In this document: positions 323-62,494 of the stretch, in pieces
How the letters are laid out: every line of letters starts with the position of its first letter
Position numbering within the stretch: position 1 is the stretch's first letter
Origin: a virus
Taxonomy: Duplodnaviria > Caudoviricetes
DNA: 64,000 nucleotides
Direction: 5' to 3' (one strand)
Virus record (IMG/VR): IMGVR_UViG_3300031853_000007
Span: 32,001 to 96,000 of that record
Made by a program: the position numbers and the translations under genes
Notes under the pieces: model-generated
Seen by the model: only the letters and a program-made list of their open reading frames with translations
Told to the model about the DNA's origin: nothing
Databases searched by the model: none

Positions 323-1286
323 TTATCGACCTACAACGAGGTCTTGTTTCGCTTCACGGACATATCTGTCAAAGTATTCTTTAAACTTGTCATAGTTATC
401 AACTATAACAGAACCTTCCATTACCCACGTGCGTTGCTGATTATATGTTGCACCAGAATTGTTTATAACTTTATTCTGAGCGTAATTATAATCTCTGATG
501 GGTAAACCATTGAATACAGTATTAGATTTAGCAAATGCGGAACCTATACTTGTAGGTACAGACTGCATCAGCTTAGAGTTAAGGAACCGATTAAGCTTTT
601 CTTGTGCTGAATCGCTAAGTCTTGAATGAGTAGTCTTCGGTTGAGTTCTAGCGTCATTCAATTCTTTGTTGCTATACTTTTCACCCTGTTTGTCGTACTC
701 GGGATCGAAGTATTTTCTCATTTCATCGTACGACCCAAACATATCCATAAACTTGCTTACATCAAACCCTTCTTTGTTAAGAGCTTGAAGCATAGCACGG
801 AAACGATCAAGTGCGGCAGTTTGTTCATCTGTTGCTTTTGCAAACTCGGCTGAGTAATTCTTGTAGAAATCAAGATACTCTTTCTGGTCATTTCGGAGTT
901 CCTCATAAACCGAAAGTTTCTTTTCAAGCCGCTCGATTTCGTTGTCAATCTCTTTAAGCCGTACATCAGTAATCTCTTTGATTCGGTCTTGTATTTTACC
1001 ATACTCTGTTTGATACTGAGATACTATGCTGAGGTCTTGACTTGCAATTTTCTCACGCCAGTCTTTACCGAAAACGGCGGCGGCGTTCATCTCATCTTGA
1101 CCATTCTTCCAAGCGTCAACCGCCTCTTGCCAAGTTTCCTTGTAATTATTCCATGATTCGATTTGAGCATCATAGTTTGCAAGAGCAGCTTCTTTTTCTT
1201 TTTCAAGGTCTTCGATTTCATACTCACGAACCAAATCGTCATATTCCTTTTGGGCTTTTTCGACTTCTTCGGTGTTGGTTTCTATT
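323..1286 (-). CDS. Tape measure protein, exon 3
   Basis: Coiled-coil frame continues exon 2 once 1287-1575 is removed (...SRGWV|IETNTEEVEKAQKEYDDLVREYE...). Confidence 0.85.
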
Positions 1287-1575
1287 CAATCTGTTACTTT
1301 CCCGTTTTCACGGTACTGACCCTTTCGGGCGGGTAGTCATTTCTGGCTACCTCTCACGTTTCATCGTTAAGTTATAGCGTGAGTTCGGACTGTATCTTCA
1401 CCCTCTATATTAATAGTAGGGGAGTAGCGAAGGTCTGTATGTTACCATACTAACCACTTTACAGTCTCTACGGTTTCTTTGTATAAAGTCTTACCTCGGT
1501 CTTATCTACTTCTAGACTTTAACCGATATAGCTACTTGTTTATAATATATTACTATATTAATGGGCAATATTATT
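1287..1575 (-). ncRNA. Group I intron (IA-like, 289 nt, no ORF): TMP intron 2
   Basis: R element CCGUAGAGACUG and S element GAAGAUACAGUCC (P7 GACUG/CAGUC); P3 AGUAGC/GCUACU; P4 UCGGUU/GACCGA. Guide UAUUGCCC pairs with ligated exons GGGU|AAUA. Ends in G, and removal restores the frame. Confidence 0.92.
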
Positions 1576-4028
1576 ACCCAACCTCTTGATGCTGAATACC
1601 GCCTAACCTTATTGTTTTTAGCCTTTTCAAGAGCAAGCTCCTTTTCACGTAGTTCGTTTATACGGTCACGTTCCTCAGCTTCCTCTTTTAGTGCGTCAAT
1701 CTGGTTGTCGTAGTATTCCTCAACTGCGGCTTTCTGCCGTTCAAGAGCGTCAATCTGCTTGTCGATTTGGCGGGTTACCGCATTAACAGCAGAATCGTAA
1801 AGCGCCGCCTGTTCTTCAAGAGTTTCTTTCTCCTCTTCAAGGACTTCGCGCGCCTCTTTCCGCTTCTTGATTTCCTTGTTGATCTTGTTGATAGTTTCGG
1901 TCAACTTGTCAATATTAGCCTGAATAAGCTCCTTTTCTTTAGCGTAAGCATCGTTTGTATCTTCGACTTCGGTTGTTATATCACGGTCAATTCTGAGCAG
2001 CTCAATCGCTTGCTTGAGAACTGCTTTGATATTTTCGTCGTCGGTAGAATTGTACATGAGAAGCAATTCTTTAAGAGAACTTTCGGTAGTGGTATTGATA
2101 AGCTCCTGCATACGCTGTTTGAGAGTATCGGCATCATTAGCATATTGGAGTAAGTCGGGGAACTGGTCAAAGAAGTCATCGCCGAGAGTTCCACCCTCTT
2201 CAAGAGTTTTGTATGCAGACTTAAGAGGATTGATGGTATTGTCGATAAGGTCTTTGAGTGTATTCTCTGTTCCGTCTATTGTGCGGACACCGTAGAAGTC
2301 GTGCCAATTGAAGGATTCGGCTTTAAGGATACCACTAATTGTACGTTTGATTTGATCCTTGTCGGGATTAAACCAGTTAATCTTATTATTGATTTCACCC
2401 TGAACTAGTTTTAAGAAAACTTCAAGTTCGCTTTCATTAAGTTCAGGAATGATTTCAGCAATGAATCCTCGCTTGTTGCCACTATGGAAACCAAATCTTT
2501 CGTCAAAAGCAGTATTGATTTTACTAATCCAATCATAAATCTTTTGTTGAGTTTGAGCTTCATCGGTATCAATAAAGAATTCACTAAGATCCGGCATACT
2601 ATTTAGAATGGAATCAATAGACGCAACGATAGCTTCATTAGAACCTAAGAAACGATTTTTATATTCATCTACACTGTCGGCAGCAGATAACATATCCTCT
2701 CTTAACTGATTAAATTCCTCTTGAGTTTTAGGTACGCCGTTTTGGTCGGTAATATCCAAGTAAAGCATTTGAGCAACAGCGGAATTTGCAGCGTCTCTTA
2801 ATTCTTTAGCTTTTTCATAGGAGCCTTGTAAATCCTCTTGCTTCTTTAGGATGCTATCCCATAACTTATTACCCTCTAATTCTTGTTGAGTATATAATCC
2901 TTTAATTCTTCCCTCTTCAAGAATCTTTTGCATTTCTAATAATTTTTCGTATGCCTCGATTGCAGAATCTAAATCATCGACTTCGCCAATATCGAAAAAA
3001 TCAATGTTTACATCACGACCACCAGTTAAGAGATCTAGTGGAAATATTCCTGTGCTCATCTTCTTAACTTCTGTTTCATACTCGATTCCTGCTTTTTTAA
3101 GCTGATCAACCATTTTACTAGTGGATTCGTCATCTATATCAAATGTTATTTCATTATATTTTCCACTAATAAATGAATCTTTGGTTTTCTTTTGGAAGTT
3201 TTCTAGTTCTTTAGTGTATCCAGCAAAAGCATCGCTATAATCTTGTTTGAGAGCATCAGTCGTTACCTTATTGATACTACCATCTAAGTCGTCATATTTT
3301 TCTCTAAGAGTTTTAATTTCGTCTTCCTCATAACCTAAAGCTTTCAAAAGAGCGTCGGTTTTATTTGTGAGATTTTCTTTTGAAGCCGCACCCTCGTCGT
3401 ATGCACTTTTAACAGAGGAATATTCTCCATATAGTGATCGAATTTGTTTAATTTCAGATTCCGCTTCCTCGCCTGTTTCTATTATCTGCTCTTTTAATTC
3501 TTTTTGCTTTTGAATTAAATTAGCTACTAAACCGATGGTGGCAGATATAATCATACTGATTCCAGCAGATGCTAACCCAGAAACTATTTGAGCGCCCATA
3601 TTTTTAAGTGCGCTCCAAGCGCTATCTTTCACATAAGCCGCAAGGCTTGCTTTAGCTCCGTTAAGCTGAACCAACTGACTACCTAATGCGTTATTAGTTT
3701 CAAGAATAGCTTCCGCCATCTTACCTCTAGAAACACTGTCGGCTTGTGCGTTATACATATTAATAGCTTTTATGCCACCCCAAAATCCGCTAGTAACTTT
3801 AACCTGAGACTGATAGAAGTCTTTTGCAGAATAATTAGCTGCATCGGTTGTTAGTGCATACTCTTTCAGTCTGTGATTTAATCCATCTTGAAGCTGAATT
3901 TGGTCTTTAGTTAATGTCCCTAACTTGACCAATTCCATCTCCGCTGTTTTATAATCAGGTAACTCTACTCCTCTAATTTGACGAAGGAATATTTTTTCAC
4001 CATCTTTTATGTTGCTAGTGTCGAATAT
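1576..4028 (-). CDS. Tape measure protein, exon 2
   Basis: The frame is open 30 codons upstream of the ORF-track Met (3938) with no RBS there. Helical/coiled-coil. Joins exons 1 and 3 in frame. Confidence 0.85.
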
Positions 4029-4077
4029 CAGACATAGTTAATGTGTAAATTTGTGGATAATAAACACATTTTCAATC

Positions 4078-4106
4078 TTGACAATATATTAATTCAATGA
4101 TATAAT
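4078..4106 (+). promoter_or_regulatory. Consensus sigma-A promoter for the antisense cargo gene
   Basis: TTGACA-17 bp-TATAAT with extended -10 TG. Confidence 0.85.
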
Positions 4107-4141
4107 TATATAAAAACAATAATTAGAAAGAGGTGTGATAA

Positions 4142-4747
4142 GTGAAAAGAAGTATTTACCTTATAATAGTTGGAATAATGCTTGTGATAAGTATGATTCT
4201 GGTTATATTTTTAGTTGTTCAGCGAAAAACATATAGTGGCGCGTATGATTCCTATAGTCATTCTAATCATTTAGATAATGATTTTGAAAAATACATTAGA
4301 GACTCAAATTTTCGCAGTTCTAATCAAACACCTATATTTCTAGCGTATCTCGGAAAAGATAAAACAATTGATAATTCCACCAATATCGTTTTAACTGTAT
4401 GGATCTGGGACGATGTGAATAACCAAAATATAGAAAAAAACTGGTCTGAACTTTCCTCGGAAGAAAAAAAGAATGACCTTCGTGAATGTGCAGAACTGGT
4501 TGAAAAATTCTTGAAAAACAAAGATGTACCTTATAGTTATCATATTTACGTAAACGTTCAAAACACCTCCAAATTAGGAAATTATGTTTACGACAAATCT
4601 CATGATTCAATATGGATACCAAATTGTGAAGAGAAAATAAAAAAAGGTGAATATGATGAACCACCATCATTAAAGGAAGGATATCATGTCTGCATATTAA
4701 ATAGTAAATTCACAGAAGTTGGCAAAGAAGAATCCACCCCATACTAA
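4142..4747 (+). CDS. Membrane-anchored hypothetical protein (moron-like), antisense within TMP intron 1
   Basis: RBS AAAGAGGTG; N-terminal TM helix IYLIIVGIMLVISMILVIFLVV; AT-rich; has its own promoter and terminator. Confidence 0.8.
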   Translation: MKRSIYLIIVGIMLVISMILVIFLVVQRKTYSGAYDSYSHSNHLDNDFEKYIRDSNFRSSNQTPIFLAYLGKDKTIDNSTNIVLTVWIWDDVNNQNIEKNWSELSSEEKKNDLRECAELVEKFLKNKDVPYSYHIYVNVQNTSKLGNYVYDKSHDSIWIPNCEEKIKKGEYDEPPSLKEGYHVCILNSKFTEVGKEESTPY

Positions 4748-4754
4748 CAAGAGC

Positions 4755-4778
4755 CACCCGAAAGGGTGGTTTATTTTT
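4755..4778 (+). terminator. Intrinsic terminator of the antisense cargo gene
   Basis: CCACCC-GAAA-GGGTGG followed by TTTATTTT on the plus strand; no good U-tract on the minus strand. Confidence 0.75.
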
Positions 4779-5202
4779 ACCAATCCACCCCGGACACATC
4801 GCCTGTCACAATCGACTCAATGATACCTACAGAGACAACCATACATTTGCCTTCATCATAAGGATGTTCTATTCTCAGGTTTCCCTTTAACTCGCCGTCT
4901 AAGAATTTCTGATAATCCTCTTCCGATATGTATCCCCAAGGATTACAAGACCAAAAGTCGTTTGTATCAACATAAACTAAAATATATCCGTCGGGTTCTC
5001 TAAGTGATGGTTCATTGGCTTCATTTCCTTCACCTATACAGTATATCCCAATAGTTAGAGCGGCAAATATCAATATAGCTATTATACACCTAAGCCAAGC
5101 GTCTCTGCATTCCTTTTTCTCAGCTTGTCCCCACGTTTCGTCTTCCCATTTTTGTGTTTTACGTTTGGGTTTGGGTTCATCTGATTCACGCCTATAACTC
5201 AT
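4777..5202 (-). CDS. Small single-TM hypothetical protein, sense cargo in TMP intron 1
   Basis: RBS AAAGGAAG; TM segment IIAILIFAALTIGIYCIG; no HNH, GIY-YIG or LAGLIDADG motif. Confidence 0.75.
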   Translation of the reverse strand: MSYRRESDEPKPKRKTQKWEDETWGQAEKKECRDAWLRCIIAILIFAALTIGIYCIGEGNEANEPSLREPDGYILVYVDTNDFWSCNPWGYISEEDYQKFLDGELKGNLRIEHPYDEGKCMVVSVGIIESIVTGDVSGVDW

Positions 5203-5538
5203 TTTAATCTTCCTTTCTTTCTATTCCTTTCGCACTTTCCCACCGTAGCAGCGAATCGCTACGTATGATTTTCTACGTTCCCGTAGTTGTCTGGAGTACC
5301 CCATGACGACTCTCGCCGCCCTACCATTATACTCTCTGAACCTTCCTACTAAGTAGGCTTGGCTGCGGATTATGCGGTATCTCAACCGCCCTTCCCGAAC
5401 GAGATTCATAAAACTCGTTACGCAATGCGCCAGTTTCGGTAGTTTTTCCAAAGCTCTCTTGTCAATTAAATCGACTCGTTCCGTGTTACCACCAGAGCTT
5501 ACTCGGGCATATTCATCGAGGGTAAACATTCTAACCCT

Positions 5539-8500
5539 ACCCGAGCCAGTTTTATCTTTGAGTTTCGCTTGAAGCGCAGTCATTCCGCCGAATGCCAGAA
5601 GTCCTGTACCCAAGCCTTTCATATCTTTGAGAACATCAAGAATATCGTTGAGTCCTCCGCCGAATTTAACAACCCAGTCTAAGCCGTCCTTGACAAGCTC
5701 ACTATCCACGACGTTGGTGGAAAGCGTCTGCCAAACAGACTGGATCTGATTAAGTTTTCCTTGAATGGAGTCGAGCGCGGTTTCTAACTCGCGGTCAGCC
5801 GAACCCTCAGCCATTCCTTCGTTTAATTCCTTGACAACATCTCTTGCGGTCTCGAAGTTTTCAAGCATAGCATAAACGGTGTTAATGCCGACTTTACCGC
5901 CGAGCATTTCGCCGATTCTAGCTTGGTCTGTATCATTGAGGTCTTTCCAAACCTTAGAGAGATCGTTGAGGATATCGTATGTGCTGCGGAAACTGTGCTC
6001 GTCGAGCATGATTTCCACGCCAGAGATTGATTTGATTTCTTCTCTCAACTTCGATACCGTCATGGTCATCTCTTCGCCCTCTTCTTCGAGTTCGCTCTTC
6101 GCGCCACGAATTCGAGCAGAGATGGTCTTAAGGGATGTTCCCATCTTTTCAGGATCTTGGATAATTTCGTTACCTGCCGTTGTTAAAGCAATCGCCTCTG
6201 AAAGCGTATTATTCGCGGCGACCAAAGACGAAGCAGAACGTTGTAAGGATTCGCCTAGCCCTGAGCTGGAAACTGCAAAATTGTTCCCGACATAATTAAA
6301 TTTATCAACAATTTCCTCTGCCGTATCACCCATACTCTGATATGCCTTCATAGTAGAGATAATACTTTCACTCGCCGTACCAATATCCAAATCCTCAGCA
6401 ACCGTCTTGTACTTCGATGCAATCTCACCGAGCTTCTGTGCTTCTTCAAGCTGATAACCCAGCCTGCTGAATGTCGCCGTCGAGTCAATCTGGTCAGTTA
6501 AAGTTGTGCCGAGTGCTATCGAAGATTTCTGAACAGACTTCTGATATTTAAGAAGAGACTGTTCGGAAGCATCTGTGACCTTGCGGAGATTAACCATCGC
6601 GGTATCAACTTCTTTGACCTGAGTAACCATGTCTTTCATCAGTCGGAGACCCTGAGTGATAGTTCTCGTTACAAGCGTCCAGCCACCGAACTTCTTGAAC
6701 ATCGCAGTGAGGACACTACCAGTAGTCTTACCGTTCTTACCGGCTAATACGATTTGGGAATTAAATTCCGCGAAGTCCGCATTAAACCTTCTTAGATCGG
6801 CGTCGCTAGTTATAAGACCATTTCTAAGTCTATCCATGAAGTCCGCATACTTTGCTGCGTTTTCAGGATATGTTAGAGCCTTAGAGTTAAGCTTACCCCA
6901 TGCTTCAAGTTCGGATATTCTATTATCTATCTTTGTTTTAAGTGATACGCCCCTGTTGCTTTCTTTCTCAACTTTAGCAGATTCTTTATTTGCAGAGATA
7001 AGTTGATTAACCGCGTATCTTGCATCATTTACGTTTTCAACATAGACACCCATTGGCTCCACAAGGTTAGCCATTACCTCATCGCGGTACTTTTTAAAAT
7101 CGGACTCGGATGCAAACTGACCCGGAGAATAACTATTTAAAGAATCCTTTGTATTAAAATACCGCCCAATGGTTCTTTCTGCCTCCGCAAGGGTTCTGCC
7201 ATCACCAATCTCAACCGTATTGAGATCTATGTTATTATCTTTAGCTTGCTTAATTAACCTATCAATTTCTAGTATTTTCTTTTCTAACTTTTGGAGACCC
7301 CCGATTGCATCATCAAACGAAAGAATATCCTCCACTTCATCATCCGAATGAGATATAAGTGTATCTACCGATTTGGTTACGTTTCGCAGTGACTCATTAA
7401 CGTTATCTATCGCATCTTCCGCTGCTTTAATTCCGCTAACATCTAATTCCTGAGATAACCAATACTCCTCGGTATTTTTAACTTTCTCGATACCATCGCT
7501 AAGTCTTTTAATTGCATCGTCGTAAGCTGAGGTATCTACATGAGCATTACTAAGTTCGTCTCTTAATGCTATTAATTTTTCAAGCGCTTCTTCGGCAAAG
7601 TTTACTGACGAATCGGTGTTGAACATATCATAGTATTGAGATACAAAACTCGGAACCGAGGTGTTGTTATACTCATTATTAGCCTCAGTTAAAAACGCAT
7701 CGGCTTCCAGTAAAGCTTTAGTAGACGGGTCTTTTCTTGTTGCAACATTATTAACCTTGATTAACTTATCTCTTATTTTCTCAAGTTTAGAGAGTAAGTC
7801 TTGTACGTCGCTATCGGGCAGTAATGTATCTTCAAGACCGCCAGTAGAAGAAAGTAGAAATTGCAATTCTTTAATCTCCCGCTGTACTTCGGGTAATAAA
7901 CCTTCTGTTTCTACGAGCATTTGTCCCGCATTTCGATTAGGTAATTGTGGTGATGCAGGCTGCTTAGGAGGTTTTGGGTTACCACCGCCAGACGGAGTAT
8001 TGGATGGCGGGGTAGCAGGTACGGGTGTATTACCCGAACCATTATTGGTCACTTGTATACCATTGGAAATCTTATTATAGATACCATTAATTATAGCCTT
8101 TGCTTCTTTGATATCCTGCTTGGTTTCATCTACATCCTCGAATATAAGGTCGGTAGAGGCAGACGCTTGTTTAACGTTATTGTCAATATCCAGAAGACTG
8201 TTGCCTATTAGTTTATACTCCGCTTCACTCCAACCTATATTATCATTAGGTTTGCTAGGTGTTATATTGTCGGGAGGATTAGAATTATCCGCATTTATAG
8301 CATAAGATTCTGCTAAACGTTCATTCTGTGCATCAATTTCTGCATCAACAAACTGTTTGATTCTATCGGCTAAGTTATTAACGCTTCTATTTGTTTCGCT
8401 AATAGCTTCACTCATTCTCTTGAAAGCTTCTTTGAGTCCCACGTTTTTGTTTGAGTTTTTATTACTTAAATCATCTGCGGTATTTTTATTGCTCTCTAAA

Positions 8501-9648
8501 TTATTGGATTCCGCAGTAGTATTATTATTTACCGCCTGAGTATTTTCAGAAATAGCATTAGCTAAATCCTGTACAATATCGCTCTTTATGACATTAGTGT
8601 CTATCTTTTCTGGTTTATATCGACTCAAATCTCTACCGGAATCCTGTCTTAGTTCATCCAGCATATCAGAGATTTTGTTTCGGTTATAAATATCGCCAAC
8701 TTGTATTTGTTTGGGCATCTTTGATGCTTCTTTTGTGCTATAAAGACCGTTTTTTACACCGAGATCAACAGCTTGGGTAAATTGATTTTTAAATTCTTTA
8801 GCTATTTGCGTAACGACTTTTTCAATGTTTCGCCCATTTATTTCCGTTCCTTCGGGTATGTATTTCAAGTCCTTTAATTTGTCAACAATTGCAACTCTTT
8901 CTTCTTTGGTAGCCGCCTTGTATTCTGCAAGAATCTCCTTTGCAATCTGAACAGAACCTACATAGTTTGTTTTAAGAACAGAGTCCACACCTTTTTTGCC
9001 AGTCTTATTATCGTCTGTAATAGGTACACGGGCTTTATTGGCATCCTTGTCTAACATACCTTCATACGCATTAGCTACATCATTAACAGTTTTTAATTTT
9101 CGAGCCATCTCATCAAATGACTCATTTATCCGTAAAACCGCTTTTTCAACATACTCAGCGCCTTTTAATGTCTTGATTTCATCAACATTAGAATCAGAAG
9201 ATTGAGACTTAATACTTGATTTAGCGGATTGTGTTTCTTTGGGTTCGGGTCTCTTTGCAACTTGCGGGACTGAATTGGAAGTATTATCCATAAACGGTGC
9301 CAAAGCTTTAATAACCTTCTTTAATTCCTTTAAATCAGATATTAGTTTCGGTAAATCACCAGCTATATTTACCTCTAAATCAATAGAATCTCCATCATAC
9401 GCAGCGTGTAATTCTTTAAATTCTGCATCTACGGATTCTGCGTCGGCTGAAATATTTAATTTTAATTCATTATCGTTTAATGCTTTTGTTAAGTCTTTTA
9501 AAAAATCATCATTGTTAGTAGAAACGTCCAATTTAATGCCTTTTTCTTCAAGTTTCTGTAAAACCTTTTCAAATTCATCAATATTTTTTGCATCTACGCT
9601 AGGTACTATTTCTAAATCAAATATACTTCCATTCATTTCATCTGCCAT
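5539..9648 (-). CDS. Tape measure protein, exon 1 (1370 codons; spliced product ~2508 aa)
   Basis: TP901-type TMP core (VDTAMVNLRKV...IVDKFNYVGNNFAVSSSGLGESLQRSAS...GTSLKTISARIRG). The last 105 codons of the 1475-aa track ORF are read-through into the intron. Confidence 0.92.
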
Positions 9649-25987: not shown

Positions 25988-26588
25988 GCATCGTAGGATA
26001 CCACATTTATATTTACACAGACCTTCGCCTTACCTCCATTAACTTTCCATGTTGTTCGACCACTGAGAAGTCAAGGCTGAATATAAAGGAGCTACCTTTA
26101 TACTTCTTGACTACTTATAAACCTCAGGCGGGACTGTTACCCACAAATTTCACCAAACGTTCAGCATTACCCCCGAAGAGGATTTATTCATCTTAAATTC
26201 TATAATACTTTAGAAGAATAAACTTTACTTGTGATATGGCTACTCTAACTGGCGACTTGTCTTATACCCCGTTTGACCGAGTTCAACACAAATGCGATTG
26301 CTTGGATTACCCAAGGAACCCCACGGTTTCCACGCCGCAGGTTTTGGGCTTATTCTACACACGTAGCGTCTATTACTCGCACGACAAGTTCCATGTCTTA
26401 CACAACGTTAACTCTTAGCACCACCACTAATATCAAGGGTTTCCCTTTCTTGCTTATACGTCACCGCATAAGAATCGACTTATCATCACAAGTATCCTTG
26501 CAATAATATTCGGTTAAGTAGCGTCTCGGCAGGGTGTTAACCATCTGCACCGAGTTGTTGTAAATATAAATCTAGCATCCTACAATGC
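25988..26588 (-). ncRNA. Large (~600 nt) highly structured ncRNA, ROOL-like
   Basis: Ends closed by 12-bp (25988-25999/26577-26588) and perfect 13-bp (26005-26017/26559-26571) helices, plus an internal 10-bp helix (26226-26235/26485-26494). A G-U wobble favours the minus strand. Starts just 3' of tRNA-Asn. Family assignment is from size and context. Confidence 0.65.
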
Positions 26589-28890: not shown

Positions 28891-29566
28891 TTACTGCTTA
28901 ACTTCTATGTAATTGATTCCGTACAGATGAATAATACCATTTGCGTCCTCTTCGAGATGACCAACAGGCTCCTTGCTAGTTAGTATCAAATCAAAGAAAG
29001 CTCCGTTACGCGAATTAAATAGTATGTTGAGCAGAGACATAGTGATATCTTTGTTCTCAGGCTTCTCTAATTCTTTGAGCAGGAAGTACATTGTACTCGT
29101 TGTCATTTTCAGGTTGGTGATGAAGTCGGAGCAACGTTCCTTAATCTCGGAAACGGCGCGGTACTTCTCTTCACCGCTTGAATGGTTGGCGGCATATACC
29201 ATCTGTATGTCAGCCTTGGCTTCGCGTACTACATCCAGTACTCGACGTATCTGGCTGTAGTTCTGCTGACCTTTTTCATACATAGACCTATCTACAATAG
29301 CAAGGAATGGGATCTGAGCTGTTGTACCATCCCATCTATAGCGGGGGATATGAAATCTACGTATCGCCGTCTGTACGTAATCCATTGTCGTGTGATGCTT
29401 CTTATAGTTCTTACGCTTAGAGTTGTAGTACCCTTTGGTTCGGGCAAGGTGTCCGAAGAAGTTAGGTTTGATATACCTATCCTTTTTGTCTTTGCGGAGA
29501 TACTTCTTTTTGAGTATCCCGATTTCCTCGGTACTGTCAAGCTGGTATTCTTTCTTTGCTTTATCT
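28891..29566 (-). CDS. YonO-like RNA polymerase, exon 2
   Basis: Frame open from 29565 (DKAKKEY...KPNFF...TTMDY) through the 164-aa track ORF. Confidence 0.85.
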
Positions 29567-29926
29567 CTTTTGTGTTTGCCGGTGTCGCTAATACCGACGG
29601 TTTCCCCTCATGCTTTCACATGAGAACAGACTATATCTTCACCATATAAAGGTGTACACCATAGCAGGATGTCAATAGCTTACATTCCCACACTCTTTCG
29701 AGTTAGTCGTTGAGCCTTTCCCTATTCGGGACTTGGTTGCGCGGTTGCCGATTATACCACACTTAGGATTTAACCTTATGCTATACACATTGTTCTTTCT
29801 GCTTTCGCCGCTATCACGCTCAGACATATTTCATTCTCACGTTGTAGCCAATGTGTCTTTACGGGTTTCCCGCAGTTAGATGTATTTATTTATGCACACA
29901 TTTCTGTATACCGAGACCAATAATCA
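29567..29926 (-). ncRNA. Group I intron (IA-like, 360 nt, no ORF) in the RNA polymerase gene
   Basis: P AACUGCGGGAAA, Q GCAACCGCGCAACCAAG, R GGCUCAACGACUA, S GAAGAUAUAGUCU; P1 GAGAU/GUCUC; terminal G. Ligation GAG AU|A GAU AAA gives EIDKAKK. Confidence 0.92.
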
Positions 29927-32031
29927 ATCTCTACATTAGAAAGAATTGCCAATTTAACTATATCATCATACAACTCCTGATTATCTTCAAACGTCTGTCC
30001 ACTATGTATATTGTTCCAGAATAACGTGTTGAGTTCCTGAGACAGATTAACTATCTCACCGATTTTGTTTACGCTGGTCTTTATATCAAGGTCACACTTG
30101 TCGCTATTGTTATAGTAGCGCTTTCTCTTGATAGCAGAAACCAGAGATGTGGGGATGGCAAACTTAGAGTAATTGCGTTCTGCGGCAGCTATCAACAACT
30201 TGTTATTAGTGAGCATCATTGTATCACTATCAAAATCGGCGCCGTTGAGCTTCTCTAATAGATTCTCATTTATGCTATTCACACACACAATTTCTTCGGT
30301 AAGGAAGAAGTAATCGTCTATATGCTTGCTCTCCACGTTATTCGCCAATAGTATGTTACCCGCGCAGATATGCGGACTTCTCGATCCGAGTAACTTCTTT
30401 CCATACTCGAACCGCACGTTATGTATGTTTCCCACACCCAAATCAGATTCGCCGTTGAATCTTCCGATAGACTGCAACAGCATCTCATATGGATTGCCAA
30501 GTAGCGTACTGTAATTGCCATTTACCAGAACGTGACCCGACATAAGGTTCTTCTTGAACGATACAAGCAAGTCCTTTAGAAAGTCGTGGTACAGTTTAGT
30601 CTCGGTAAACTTCTCATTGATACCAAGGAGCTGATACACTATGTCGTTCTTATTTGCTATCTCCTCTAAGTTAATGGGCGGATTCTCGGGGTACTTAATA
30701 TGGTGACGCACGACAGCAGGATTGTACCGCAGGTTAGACATATACTCGAAGGACTCCGCAAGTAAACGATCAACTTCCTTTTCCGAAAGCTGTAAAGTGT
30801 TGAGCAACTGATAGTGTGTCTGAACTAATCTACCATCGAAATAGTGTGTAGGCTTTTCATGCTTTACTACACCAAACGTGGTTTCGAGGTTATCGAGCCA
30901 CTGGTCGAGCGTTCCGAACTTTAAGAACTTGATGCTACTCGGCGTGGTTATCAACTTGATGTCCTCAATTGATTTAGCGCGGGTATAACCGTTAAGCTGC
31001 GAAACCTCGGTGATTCCATTATCGGCAAAGAACTTCTGAATGTGGGTAGAAAACGCGGCAGTCTTGAAGAAGCGGTTACGAAGCAGGAGCATACTGTAGT
31101 GGCTGTATTTTCCGTACATCGAATAGTCCATAAGAGTCTGACCGTCCCATATACTGTTGTTTACCTCAACAAAGTCGTTGGTTGTCTGGAGCGAAGTTCC
31201 ATCATATGAGACAGCGGCGGCTCTATCCTTAAACACGCTATTGTAATCGTCGATCACCAGAATGTTTTCAGGCTGTATCTCAATCGTGTCAATGATACTA
31301 CTGAGTGTCAGCGATATGTAAGCTTCAAAAGCAGCGAGGTCTATCTCGTCACCGTCGCGGATTTTTAAACCACAGCATTCCCATTTGTGCATACGGCTGT
31401 ACAGCTTCTCGTCGATGAACAGACACTTGCCAACGCGGGAGCTACCACTACTGCGCTTGAAACGGATATATTTGATACCGTCGCAGTAGAACCCATTATT
31501 ATAGAGTTCGTTACGCAGGTCAGCAACACTATTCAGTACCAAAATATTATCTTTAGCGTAGTACTTCTTATCCTTGACGTAGAAGAACTTACCGAGAACT
31601 TCGGGGTCGTCCACAATCTTGTCCATTTCCTTATTGGTTTGGATAGCAATAAGTTCGCCGTCTTCTATGCAGATACCGTCGGTAAGCGTGATGTCGTTTA
31701 TGTCGTAGCCGAACTTAACGTAGATGTCAGAAGTGATTCGGTTATAGAGTTTGTTGCTGTAGTTAAAGTTGACGTTGATGATGCGCTGGGTATACTCCTT
31801 TTCGCCTATAAAAAAAGAAAACCGCTTGTTGCGGTAGACTTTAGTGTATACGTCTCGGAGTTTAAATAGGTCGAGACAGTAATCGAGGTCGCCCGAAAAC
31901 TTGCGGGGACTGATTGAACCATCGCGGCGGCGGATATTATAACCAAGAGGATTTGGCTTGTTATAGTGGTTGGCTATGTAGATATCCTTAGCGTCGAGGT
32001 TCAGTATTTTGATTGACTTGGGTTTACTCAT
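29927..32031 (-). CDS. YonO-like single-subunit RNA polymerase (cellular RdRP-like fold), exon 1; spliced ~926 aa
   Basis: RSSGSSRVG, WDG, RNRFFK, RSPH, catalytic GADFDSD, IGEIVN; SPbeta-like synteny with HU and phosphoesterase. Confidence 0.8.
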
Positions 32032-32046
32032 GTTATCACTCTCCAT

Positions 32047-32073
32047 AAAAAAAGAACGAGCGTTAACTCGTTC
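32047..32073 (-). terminator. Intrinsic terminator between rep and RNA polymerase
   Basis: GAACGAG-TTAACG-CTCGTTC followed by T7. Confidence 0.7.
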
Positions 32074-32095
32074 GGTCGTGTTATTGTTTTTCCTA

Positions 32096-32887
32096 TTATA
32101 GTGGCTGCCAATCGTCTGGCAAATCATTTGATAACCTTTCTATTTCTCGCCGTTCCTTTTCACTATCATAGACTCTAAATACAACAGAAGTTACTTTACC
32201 ACTCGTTATGACTTCTTCGTACTTCACCGAAATATCAGTTTTGGTGTTAATCTCGTCTACGGCAACTCCGAGAACTTTGGTGCGAAACCTATTAAAATCC
32301 TTTTTGTATCTTGAAGTCTTAACTCTAAACACATCTTTCATTAAACTATCTACCTGAATCTTCCAAGAAGAACGAAATGCGTTATCTTTTAAATACTGAT
32401 AAAGATATATTGAGTACAAACTCTTCATCGTAATAACATTACGTAGCTGATATCTTACATATCCGATTTGGTCTAAATTAAAGAATAACGGTTTTGCGGT
32501 TTCACTACACTTTAAGTAAATATACTTTTCGTCTGTTATTTCATCTCTTTTTACTCCTGCACTATCAAATAGATTACAAACAAGAAATCCATCTTCGCTA
32601 TCTTCAAAAGGGACTGTTACTTGTAATTTAATAAGGTCTGATAAACTCTTCTGTAACTCCTCAGTTCTAAGTCTTGATACACCAAGCATGTTCTCGTATT
32701 CCGATACTTTGAATGAAACAATAGTCTCGTCTGGATTGTGAGAGTTAATACAACTCATGTATGTATCGAGTACTTTGAATTGACCGATGGTATAATTAAT
32801 ATCCGTAGCTAGAAGTAGCGGTCTGCTCTTTTGAACTATATGGTTGGAATTAAGTATGGTGGGCTTTGATTCATTTTTCTCTTTCAT
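32096..32887 (-). CDS. Plasmid-type replication initiator (Rep_3/RepB family)
   Basis: HIVQKSRPLL, MKSLYSIYLYQYLK, FNRFRTKVLGVAVDEINTKTDI; iterons upstream. Confidence 0.85.
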   Translation of the reverse strand: MKEKNESKPTILNSNHIVQKSRPLLLATDINYTIGQFKVLDTYMSCINSHNPDETIVSFKVSEYENMLGVSRLRTEELQKSLSDLIKLQVTVPFEDSEDGFLVCNLFDSAGVKRDEITDEKYIYLKCSETAKPLFFNLDQIGYVRYQLRNVITMKSLYSIYLYQYLKDNAFRSSWKIQVDSLMKDVFRVKTSRYKKDFNRFRTKVLGVAVDEINTKTDISVKYEEVITSGKVTSVVFRVYDSEKERREIERLSNDLPDDWQPL

Positions 32888-53013: not shown

Positions 53014-53245
53014 GTCAACCACCCCGACCTACGGCTAATGCCTTAGAGGTCGGAGCTTGTAAAAGCTCTGATTGACTACTCTAAGTTCTTTAAGAACTAC
53101 GTTATTTGTGTTATCACACCTGCGGATGATTCCCAAGTCTGCAGCAACTGTGGAGGCTCTGTAAACAGTTCTGATGGGCAGGAACAGTCAACCTCAAGTG
53201 ACCGATTACGGCAAGCACTTATAACATTGAGGAAGGGAAACAAAC
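53014..53245 (+). ncRNA. omegaRNA scaffold of IscB
   Basis: GTCAAC...TTGACTA, CTACGTT, CCCAAGTC, TAAACAG, AACATTGAGGAAGGG pattern upstream of iscB; 3' end approximate. Confidence 0.8.
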
Positions 53246-61877: not shown

Positions 61878-61948
61878 TTCGGCTTAGTTTATTGGTAGAA
61901 CAAGAGTTTTTGGCACTCTAGGAAAAGGTTCGAGTCCTTTAGCCGAAG
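61878..61948 (+). tRNA. tRNA-Gln (TTG)
   Basis: Cloverleaf, anticodon stem AGAGT/ACTCT, loop TT TTG GC. Confidence 0.85.
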
Positions 61949-62093
61949 TTTGCGTGAACACCTCCTAGACGATTCGACTCCGCCGTCGAAGAATAGTAGA
62001 CGGCGGGCATCGAGTCGGGTTGCATCACGCATGTAAGTTTACTTTTCCTTTTCATAAATCTATGTAAAGGAGTTGTTTAAAATGTAATTATTT

Positions 62094-62167
62094 CGGGGCA
62101 TACGTCAATTTGGTAGACGGCGACATTTGGGATGTCGAGGCTGTGGGTTCAAGTCCCGCTGCTCCGA
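62094..62167 (+). tRNA. tRNA-Pro (TGG)
   Basis: Cloverleaf, loop TT TGG GA. Confidence 0.92.
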
Positions 62168-62173
62168 TTTTTT

Positions 62174-62256
62174 GCAACAGTAGCTTAACGGGAAAGCAGC
62201 GGGTACCCCTTAAAAACAAGTATAGCAAGTTGTTGGTTCGAGTCCAATCTGTTGCA
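62174..62256 (+). tRNA. tRNA-like gene with enlarged, irregular anticodon arm (identity undetermined)
   Basis: Intact acceptor, D and T arms; 28 nt where 17 are expected. Confidence 0.55.
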
Positions 62257-62336
62257 TTGCTTTATGTTAAAAAAGCATACATTTAGCGTCTGACTTCTTG
62301 GAAAGACAAGATGACAGCTCGAAAAGACGAGCATTC

Positions 62337-62411
62337 GCTCCCTTGGTGGAATTGGCATACACATCGGTTTTAAGTCCCGTTCATTTGCGAGTTCGAGTCT
62401 CGCAGGGAGCA
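62337..62411 (+). tRNA. tRNA-Leu (TAA), atypical short variable region
   Basis: Leu-type D arm, loop TT TAA GT, two anticodon-stem mismatches. Confidence 0.65.
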
Positions 62412-62414
62412 TAT

Positions 62415-62494
62415 GCCCTCATGGTGGAATAGGAAGACACGGCGGCTTCAAGTACCGCTTCGTAAGAGTATCGGTTCGAGTCCGATTGGGGGTA
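62415..62494 (+). tRNA. tRNA-Leu (CAA)
   Basis: Cloverleaf with variable arm, loop TT CAA GT. Confidence 0.85.

Follow-up and report, generated by a model that had tools for sequence, protein, structure and literature searches.

In a phage of ~112 kb from cattle gut, we analysed a stretch of 64,000 nucleotides (the window; bases 32001-96000 of a 112,310-bp IMG/VR virus record that is estimated to be 96% complete) in which the gene for the tape measure protein (TMP) is broken by two small genes. A 1,475-amino-acid open reading frame (ORF) on the minus strand (5221-9648) contains PhageMin_Tail, a tape measure domain (Pfam PF10145, E = 1.6e-21). It is followed by a 141-amino-acid ORF on the same strand (ORF A, 4777-5202) and a 201-amino-acid ORF on the opposite strand (ORF B, 4142-4747), and past both a long frame stays open from 4037 down to 1512. 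Related large phages of Firmicutes have TMPs (Sundance, 2,528 amino acids; SPbeta YomI) that run more than 1,400 residues past the point at which the first ORF ends. An earlier reading of this DNA (the original prediction) explained the break by a group I intron. Our analysis of the sequence leads us to the same view: we think it likely that the TMP gene contains a complete group I intron at 4029-5538 on the minus strand, with a 3' arm that serves as a site for accessory genes.

Near-identical DNA is present in several bovine-gut metagenome runs, and independent runs share the same arrangement, which rules out an artefact of assembly. Among the sequencing runs listed for the locus, none is an RNA run. 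With three tyrosine recombinases encoded in the record, a temperate lifestyle is plausible, and the source phage is probably temperate. Megablast of the locus against phage records gave no match.

Joining 9648-5539, 4028-1576 and 1286-323 yields a single frame of 2,508 amino acids with no internal stop. Exon 1 (5539-9648, minus strand; 1,370 codons) holds the PhageMin_Tail domain and ends in ...KTGSG, with GGT, and its tail aligns with the TMPs of Sundance, SPbeta and many metagenomic phages. Exon 2 (1576-4028, minus strand; 817 codons plus 2 nt) starts with IFDTSNIKDGEK; a tblastn and related-locus search with this exon found nothing in phages or viral contigs. Exon 3 (323-1286, minus strand) completes the joined frame. 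Between exons 2 and 3 lies a second group I intron of the TMP gene (1287-1575, minus strand), which amends the original picture of this gene. It contains no ORF, scores 35.5 bits against the Rfam group I model RF00028 (Intron_gpI) and has a P1 of UGGGU/GCCCA. The end of the exon-2 ORF is read-through into this intron, and a contiguous TMP (P0104) aligns across the second junction (E = 2e-34).

Ribozyme core and predicted remote 3' splice site

A full group I core had been proposed at ~5240-5538, and we located it at 5244-5538, or 5244-5545 (minus strand) when exon nucleotides 5539-5545 are included. The catalytic helices P1-P9a all fall within the first ~300 nt of the 1,510-nt intron, and the long cargo-holding 3' arm follows. 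P1 pairs exon CUCGGGU (5539-5545) with GCCCGAG (5502-5508), placing a U.G pair at the cut; GCCCGAG belongs to an internal guide (5502-5514) whose remaining part, GAAUAU (5509-5514), takes part in P10. Also on the minus strand are P2 with the invariant loop GGUGGUAACACGGAAC (5478-5493), P3 (5438-5442/5321-5325), P4 (5394-5397/5366-5369), P6 (5340-5363), P7 (5330-5336/5293-5298; G(A)GAGUA/UACUCC, with a bulged A), P8 (5305-5320), P9 (5273-5286) and P9a (5244-5263), together with a P1 extension and P5. Two extra covarying hairpins, Ha (5421-5429) and Hb (5398-5419), occupy 5398-5429 between the 5' strand of P3 and P4, a place taken by a three-base joiner in the Rfam consensus; one of them has the conserved loop UUUxxGUAAUU. 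J7/3 consists of UAAU only, and P7.1/P7.2 are absent.

This core is supported by covariation, by a minimum-free-energy (MFE) fold and by a partial RF00028 match of 19.4 bits on P4-P6 (5333-5399) in a genome-wide pass. For the covariation analysis, 15 family representatives were aligned (A1) and the canonical group I topology, with P3 crossing P7, was written in. In A1 the structure pairs in 92.3% of cells, whereas sliding the 3' partners leaves 36-46%; compensatory changes on both sides occur in 30 of 49 pairs, and the observed covariation was reached by none of 500 shuffles. P3, P4, P6, P7 and P8 pair in 92-100% of A1 cells and show compensatory changes, supporting the P3/P7 pseudoknot. The U.G at the 5' splice site is invariant in all 15 members, and three P1 pairs covary, the helix following the exon as it changes among members (CUCGGGU, CAAGGGU, UGUGGGU, GCUGGGU). 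The MFE fold of the window sequence alone recovers P1, P2, P4/P5, P6a, P7, P8 and P9 (z = -2.3). A gut-phage scaffold with a TMP 39% identical to that of the window (L002) has a homologous sequence in the corresponding position, where P7 carries a compensatory change.

The 3' splice site had been placed ~1.25 kb past the core, at 4029, and three features agree on this position. The 5' strand of P9.0, AGACA (5288-5292, minus strand), directly follows the 3' strand of P7 and forms 5 bp with UGUCU (4030-4034, minus strand), its partner ~1.25 kb away; the terminal G is at 4029, and the site falls between 4029 and 4028. The guide GAAUAU-GCCCGAG is complementary to the ligated exons, as the original prediction had proposed, and its P10 part pairs 6/6 with AUAUUC of exon 2 (4023-4028). 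Ligation is in frame (...KTGSG^IFDTSN..., the caret marking the junction), the exon-2 frame opening only 3 codons upstream of the site. When we scanned every G downstream of the core that gives an open frame of at least 120 codons, G4029 was the sole in-frame G with a full 6-bp P10. The predicted ligated exon junction is GGCTCGGGT^ATATTCGAC, and the predicted TMP junction peptides are ...TGSGIFDTSNIK and ...ASRGWVIETNTEEVEK.

Uninterrupted TMPs provide a view of the protein at this junction. At the homologous place, TMPs of 2,000-2,400 amino acids read ...KNLG-IFDVVDGKIG, ...GKNFG-IFDVVDG or ...TG-IFDVMTD, and this G-IFD..DG reading matches the ligated KTGSG-IFDTSNIKDGEKI. A contiguous TMP (P0057) spans the ligated junction in a single high-scoring segment pair (query 1-399, junction at 200/201, E = 3e-36). 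The TMPs of close relatives (P0002-P0009, 55-98% identity; 97-98% for P0002-P0005) all end just past ...KTGSG, in read-through into the same intron. In one relative with the same guide (L101), the splice prediction is G^IFKIVDGD. A 17-mer covering the ligated junction had 0 matches in viral contigs. Its 28 matches in metagenome contigs were all due to chance, with flank identities of 31-43%. No exon-exon joints occurred in the contigs of four cattle-gut runs, a result that is uninformative on splicing or intron-less alleles.

The same architecture recurs in related phages. An invariant 16-mer from the P2 region (GGTGGTRACACGGAAC) retrieves more than 100 loci of several subtypes in viral contigs of 80-150 kb; a scan of genome contigs with this 16-mer gave mostly chance matches, the only family members being L201, in a metagenome-assembled genome of an Oscillospiraceae bacterium, and L225. 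All subtypes sit at the homologous TMP position, their exon-1 tails aligning to window residues ~1060-1370. Testing of the 3' site was limited to the 23 loci with enough flank. In all 23, a site with a terminal G and an open exon frame lies 1.5-4.0 kb from the 5' splice site, with at least 5 contiguous pairs in P10 and at least 4 of 5 pairs in P9.0. Both pairings covary: P9.0 is AGACA/UGUCU in the window and AAAUC/GAUUU or GGACU/AGUUU elsewhere, and P10 occurs as GAAUAU/AUAUUC, GAUUGU/ACAAUC, GAAAAC/GUUUUC and UGAUGU/GCAUCG. The window intron is the shortest of those with a defined 3' end. In aggregate, the sequence hallmarks of a group I intron are confirmed in full at 4029-5538; splicing itself is what we infer from them.

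Just before the 3' splice site, the window intron has a terminal hairpin (4040-4070, minus strand; AAUGUGU/ACACAUU) that lies 5 nt upstream of the 3' strand of P9.0 and holds UCCACAA in its loop. Hairpins with UCCACA or GACCAC loops precede the 3' splice site in relatives as well, the GACCAC loops being those of type A relatives. UCCACA(A)-loop hairpins just upstream of the site number one in the window, three in L122 (2360-2440) and four in L123 (2985-3075). These CCAC-loop hairpins may be RNA tethers or protein-binding sites. The P2 loop GGUGGU, invariant across the family, could form only 4 bp with the CCAC hairpin loop in the window.

Cargo genes in the window and in related phages

Both genes in the 3' arm encode predicted membrane proteins. 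ORF A (4777-5202, minus strand; 141 amino acids), in sense orientation, has a ribosome-binding site (RBS), a charged N-terminus, one hydrophobic segment predicted as a transmembrane (TM) helix (residues 39-57, KD19 2.6) and a C-terminal domain of ~85 amino acids. Its homologues are 95, 78 and 55% identical over the full length, and in a variant from another run the gene is kept in frame through several indels. ORF B (4142-4747, plus strand; 201 amino acids), antisense to the TMP gene, also has one hydrophobic segment, a predicted signal-anchor TM helix (residues 8-26, KD19 3.4), and an alpha/beta domain of ~170 amino acids. Its homologues are 71 and 52% identical over the full length, with more distant ones at 34-35% in two other phages. 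The original prediction of two single-TM proteins, one per strand, thus agrees with the one hydrophobic segment found in each ORF, and the greater part of either protein has a predicted extracytoplasmic location.

ORF B is set up as a unit of its own. Its GC content is 31%, compared with 41% for the window, and an RBS precedes it. The promoter (4078-4106, plus strand) consists of TTGACA, a 17-nt spacer and TATAAT, with an upstream TG and 12/12 consensus matches. Between the two convergent ORFs, a GC-rich hairpin (4751-4772) forms a good intrinsic terminator on the plus strand, for ORF B, and has a poor U-tract on the minus strand. With its own promoter and terminator around a single gene of deviant composition, ORF B has the sequence characteristics of a moron.

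Neither ORF has a family, nuclease families included, in Pfam, PHROGs or PADLOC, so the earlier claim of a cargo without nuclease motifs is supported as far as profiles go. The AlphaFold2 (AF2) model of ORF B has a predicted local distance difference test (pLDDT) score of 63; Foldseek searches with it against PDB and BFVD returned no match at E <= 0.001. The best VIA Z for ORF B, 6.7, was to generic alpha/beta domains, and ESM Atlas gave unnamed clusters only, at 0.83. The model of ORF A has a pLDDT of 55. The membrane anchors of both ORFs argue against a DNA enzyme.

The original prediction had proposed comparing related TMP loci for a conserved core with variable cargo, and this comparison was positive in 23 relatives with introns of 1.5-4 kb. 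No compact intron free of cargo turned up among the 23 whose 3' end is defined. Members of one subtype can differ in cargo length, as in a range of 2.6 to 4.0 kb, and contigs from other cattle samples diverge right after the core or after ORF A and hold variant cargo. We grouped 91 ORFs of at least 80 amino acids from the 23 introns into 47 groups and added ORFs A and B. Among these 49 representatives there were no LAGLIDADG, GIY-YIG, HNH or His-Cys domains, and PADLOC found nothing above noise in the cargo. The relatives instead carry retropepsin-like aspartyl proteases with a small partner, a 110-amino-acid coiled-coil protein, one PemK/MazF toxin, one PBECR4 RNase-toxin domain and zinc ribbons.

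A recurrent feature is an antisense gene directly beside the 3' splice site, present in six subtypes and encoding a conserved C-terminal zinc ribbon (CPxC...GK..C.NC). Such genes lie at L037:3663-4130 (+), L101:2499-2966 (+), L019:9117-9734 (-), L009:6474-7088 (+) and L038:4269-5027 (-). Near-consensus antisense promoters precede them in L037, L009, L019 and L039; in L019 and L039 the -10 box is in the intron end and the -35 box inside exon 2. In L037, the -35 box of the antisense promoter overlaps the position of the 3' strand of P9.0. The zinc-ribbon gene may be linked to intron maintenance or mobility. ORF B sits at the same antisense position in the window intron, without a zinc ribbon.

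Two phages may carry far longer inserts. In G001 (L122/L124) and G002 (L123/L125), the TMP halves are ~10 kb and ~14 kb apart, and immediately upstream of a second TMP half that starts ...agtatG^ATATTC the distant ORF B homologues (34-35%) run antisense. In L124, a good P1 (ACAGGU/GCCUGU), again with GAAUAU as the guide, comes after the PhageMin_Tail half. A GmrSD-type restriction gene lies between the halves, as do a DDE transposase and a type I specificity subunit. The weak points of this pair are a mismatch in one P7 and the weak P1 of L125.

Several further RNA elements were seen. Among related TMPs (P0018, P0069, P0120; P0010-P0017), cuts also occur at another site, inside the PhageMin_Tail domain, with intron-2-like read-through, and some show a different type of read-through (EPKNQ..ICPEF) at the site of the 4029-5538 intron. 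These sequences suggest that other intron families are present in these TMP genes. Elsewhere in the window, a third group I intron (29607-29936, minus strand; 73.7 bits) passes the Rfam threshold; the ORFs on either side of it, 29890-32127 and 28891-29385, are both without a Pfam family. Outside the window there is a fourth match, below threshold (G000:100782-101044, plus strand). The window also holds a ROOL RNA (325 bits) adjoining tRNA genes, a HEARO RNA (125 bits) and a tRNA gene cluster, in regions that jointly cover 26001-26578 (minus strand), 53014-53245 (plus strand) and 61878-62494 (plus strand).

Alternative explanations and known systems

Several observations weigh against a splicing intron with accessory cargo. 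The Infernal search with a group I model that the original prediction had suggested came out below threshold: over the core, RF00028 gave no match at the gathering score or, in cmscan, at E <= 10. The same model misses the cores of five relatives, and Rfam probably overlooks the family because of its two extra hairpins between P3 and P4 and its lack of P7.1/P7.2. The exon-1 frame stays open for 105 codons (5221-5538), across the whole core, before a normal stop, so ribosomes that translate it could interfere with folding; in 77 distinct family cores, the median open length of the exon frame is 44 codons, compared with 3 and 16 in the other frames. L037, the closest relative for which DNA was available, has an in-frame ATATTC without a preceding G (L037:3620-3660, minus strand). 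A sense-strand hairpin with a weak U-tract (4754-4769) might attenuate read-through to exon 2. As for the cargo, few homologues exist for either ORF, and the low-confidence model of ORF A and the unassigned fold of ORF B leave room for an unrecognised nuclease or mobility protein.

The long open frame and the missing G in L037 would suit a relic ribozyme that no longer splices, with two or three TMP fragments, each translated on its own, making up the tail and the two ORFs merely intergenic; the distance of 10-14 kb that separates the TMP halves in G001 and in G002, over which splicing is hard to credit, points the same way. We consider this quite improbable. In 23 relatives, at sites 1.5-4 kb from the core, the terminal G, P10 and P9.0 have been retained and covary, and the core helices are all intact. 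No start codon ahead of residue 31 in exon 2 has a usable RBS, and the stretch preceding that residue (IFD..DG) is conserved TMP sequence.

If the intron does splice, its cargo could still be read in two other ways, each of which we regard as unlikely. One is an ordinary mobile intron, in which ORF A, ORF B or the zinc-ribbon protein of the relatives is a new homing endonuclease or maturase. The family does occupy one site, without a known homing endonuclease gene (HEG), in TMPs that are only 26-56% identical; the antisense CPxC...CxxC zinc-ribbon gene lies beside the 3' splice site in six subtypes, and some PD-(D/E)XK nucleases are among the weak Foldseek matches of ORF B (probability <= 0.3). 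Against mobility stand the TM anchor and the largely extracytoplasmic prediction for both ORFs, the lack of any nuclease family in three libraries, best structural matches that are generic alpha/beta (Z <= 6.7), the missing zinc ribbon in ORF B and the differing cargo of close variants. The other reading takes the cargo as a recent, decaying insertion of no benefit that is merely tolerated, which would fit the rarity of A and B homologues, the turnover of cargo between variants and the foreign composition of ORF B. Yet both ORFs are intact, with 52-95% identity over their full length and indels in frame, a perfect promoter, an RBS and a terminator serve ORF B, and none of the 23 introns with a defined 3' end is free of cargo.

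Group I introns in TMP genes have been described in Bacillus cereus-group prophages (TMP-IVS1/2/3; Tourasse & Kolsto 2008, PMC2504315). Those introns resemble ours in residing in the TMP gene of temperate Firmicutes phages, in numbering several per gene and in P1/P10 that adapt to the site. They are compact IA1/IA2 introns, some with HEG remnants, whereas in the window intron two non-nuclease genes occupy a 3' arm of 1.2 kb, two extra hairpins lie between P3 and P4, and P7.1/P7.2 are absent. The T4 nrdD (sunY) intron is said, in work of Michel et al. from 1992, to consist of a core and then an ORF, with a remote 3' splice site recruited via P9.0 and P10. The window intron shares its compact 5' core, long ORF-bearing 3' extension and P9.0 plus P10 recruitment; the sunY ORF, however, is a sense-strand homing endonuclease (I-TevII), in contrast to the two membrane-protein genes of the window, one of them antisense.

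Organellar group I introns can carry non-HEG genes, such as rps3 in a fungal intron of the mitochondrial large-subunit rRNA gene (mt-LSU). There, too, the gene inside the group I intron has nothing to do with intron mobility, but a lone housekeeping gene of the host occupies a peripheral loop of the organellar intron, unlike the variable multi-gene phage cargo of the window family. For ORF B, phage morons and superinfection-exclusion proteins such as Ltp and Sie2009 form the comparison class. Like these, ORF B is AT-rich, has its own promoter and terminator within a late operon and encodes a small, membrane-anchored protein that is predicted to be surface-exposed; morons lie between genes, whereas ORF B is inside a gene, within an intron. 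Neither ORF A nor ORF B showed homology to known Sie or Ltp proteins (Ltp family, PMC3952083), and no fold similarity to either was found for ORF B.

A general statement on group I introns with non-HEG genes is given in PMC4227781, which also covers IStrons, group I introns fused at their 3' end to an IS200/IS605 insertion sequence (IS) element. IStrons share with the window intron a 5' ribozyme, kilobase non-HEG coding cargo before a remote 3' splice site, an occurrence in Firmicutes and splicing that makes the insertion harmless. Their cargo, however, is a transposon (tnpA/tnpB) that moves the element, their ribozyme is of the IA2 type with P7.1/P7.2, and they occupy many insertion sites. 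The window family keeps to one fixed TMP site and holds variable accessory cargo, some of it antisense with its own promoters. No transposase domain was found in the window cargo with Pfam, and P7.1/P7.2 are lacking, which sets the intron apart from IStrons. A full-text literature search found no described phage intron lineage that combines variable accessory-gene cargo with antisense promoter-driven genes. TMP introns, remote 3' splice sites and IS-carrying IStrons are thus already known; for a phage intron family as a variable accessory-gene site we found no report, and it is apparently undescribed.

Proposed mechanism and implications

We propose that, as late transcription crosses the TMP gene, the 5' 300 nt of the intron would fold into the ribozyme. 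P9.0 (AGACA/UGUCU) and P10 (GAAUAU/AUAUUC) would bring the 3' end back to the core, and the terminal hairpin at 4040-4070 may help in its capture. Guanosine-initiated splicing would then join ...KTGSG to IFDTSN..., and removal of intron 2 as well would restore the 2,508-amino-acid TMP. With splicing of this kind, the 3' arm could tolerate foreign DNA and act as a safe site for accessory genes.

The two cargo genes would be expressed in different ways. For ORF A, either the late pre-mRNA or the excised intron is presumably the template of translation. The antisense unit of ORF B, AT-rich and moron-like with a perfect sigma-70-type promoter, would encode a membrane-anchored extracytoplasmic protein; host RNA polymerase presumably transcribes it without dependence on late transcription, in lysogens for instance. 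Envelope proteins of the single-pass kind that prophages make are typically exclusion factors. The cargo proteins would on this account act at the cell envelope, with superinfection exclusion as the leading guess; ORF B fits such a role by topology (one TM helix, external domain) and promoter only. Linkage of the cargo to the TMP gene may be selected rather than merely tolerated.

A broader possibility, which we put forward tentatively and hold to be somewhat doubtful, is that the TMP-site intron lineage is a general integration platform for accessory and defence genes in large Clostridia gut phages. Cargo would then range from 1.2 kb to perhaps 10-14 kb (G001, G002), CCAC-loop hairpins would tether the distant splice site, and the antisense promoter, although within a late structural gene, would give expression at the lysogen stage.

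Accessory genes of phages, such as morons and genes for defence or counter-defence, are known to cluster at intergenic hot spots. The hot spot proposed here would lie inside an essential structural gene, with a ribozyme making the insertion harmless. If splicing holds true, automatic Rfam annotation overlooks this intron subtype, and many gut-phage TMPs that are annotated as truncated or split would be explained. The family would also be a natural case of splice-site recruitment over 1.5-4 kb or more, and phage group I introns could, beyond being vehicles for homing endonucleases, serve as platforms for variable cargo.

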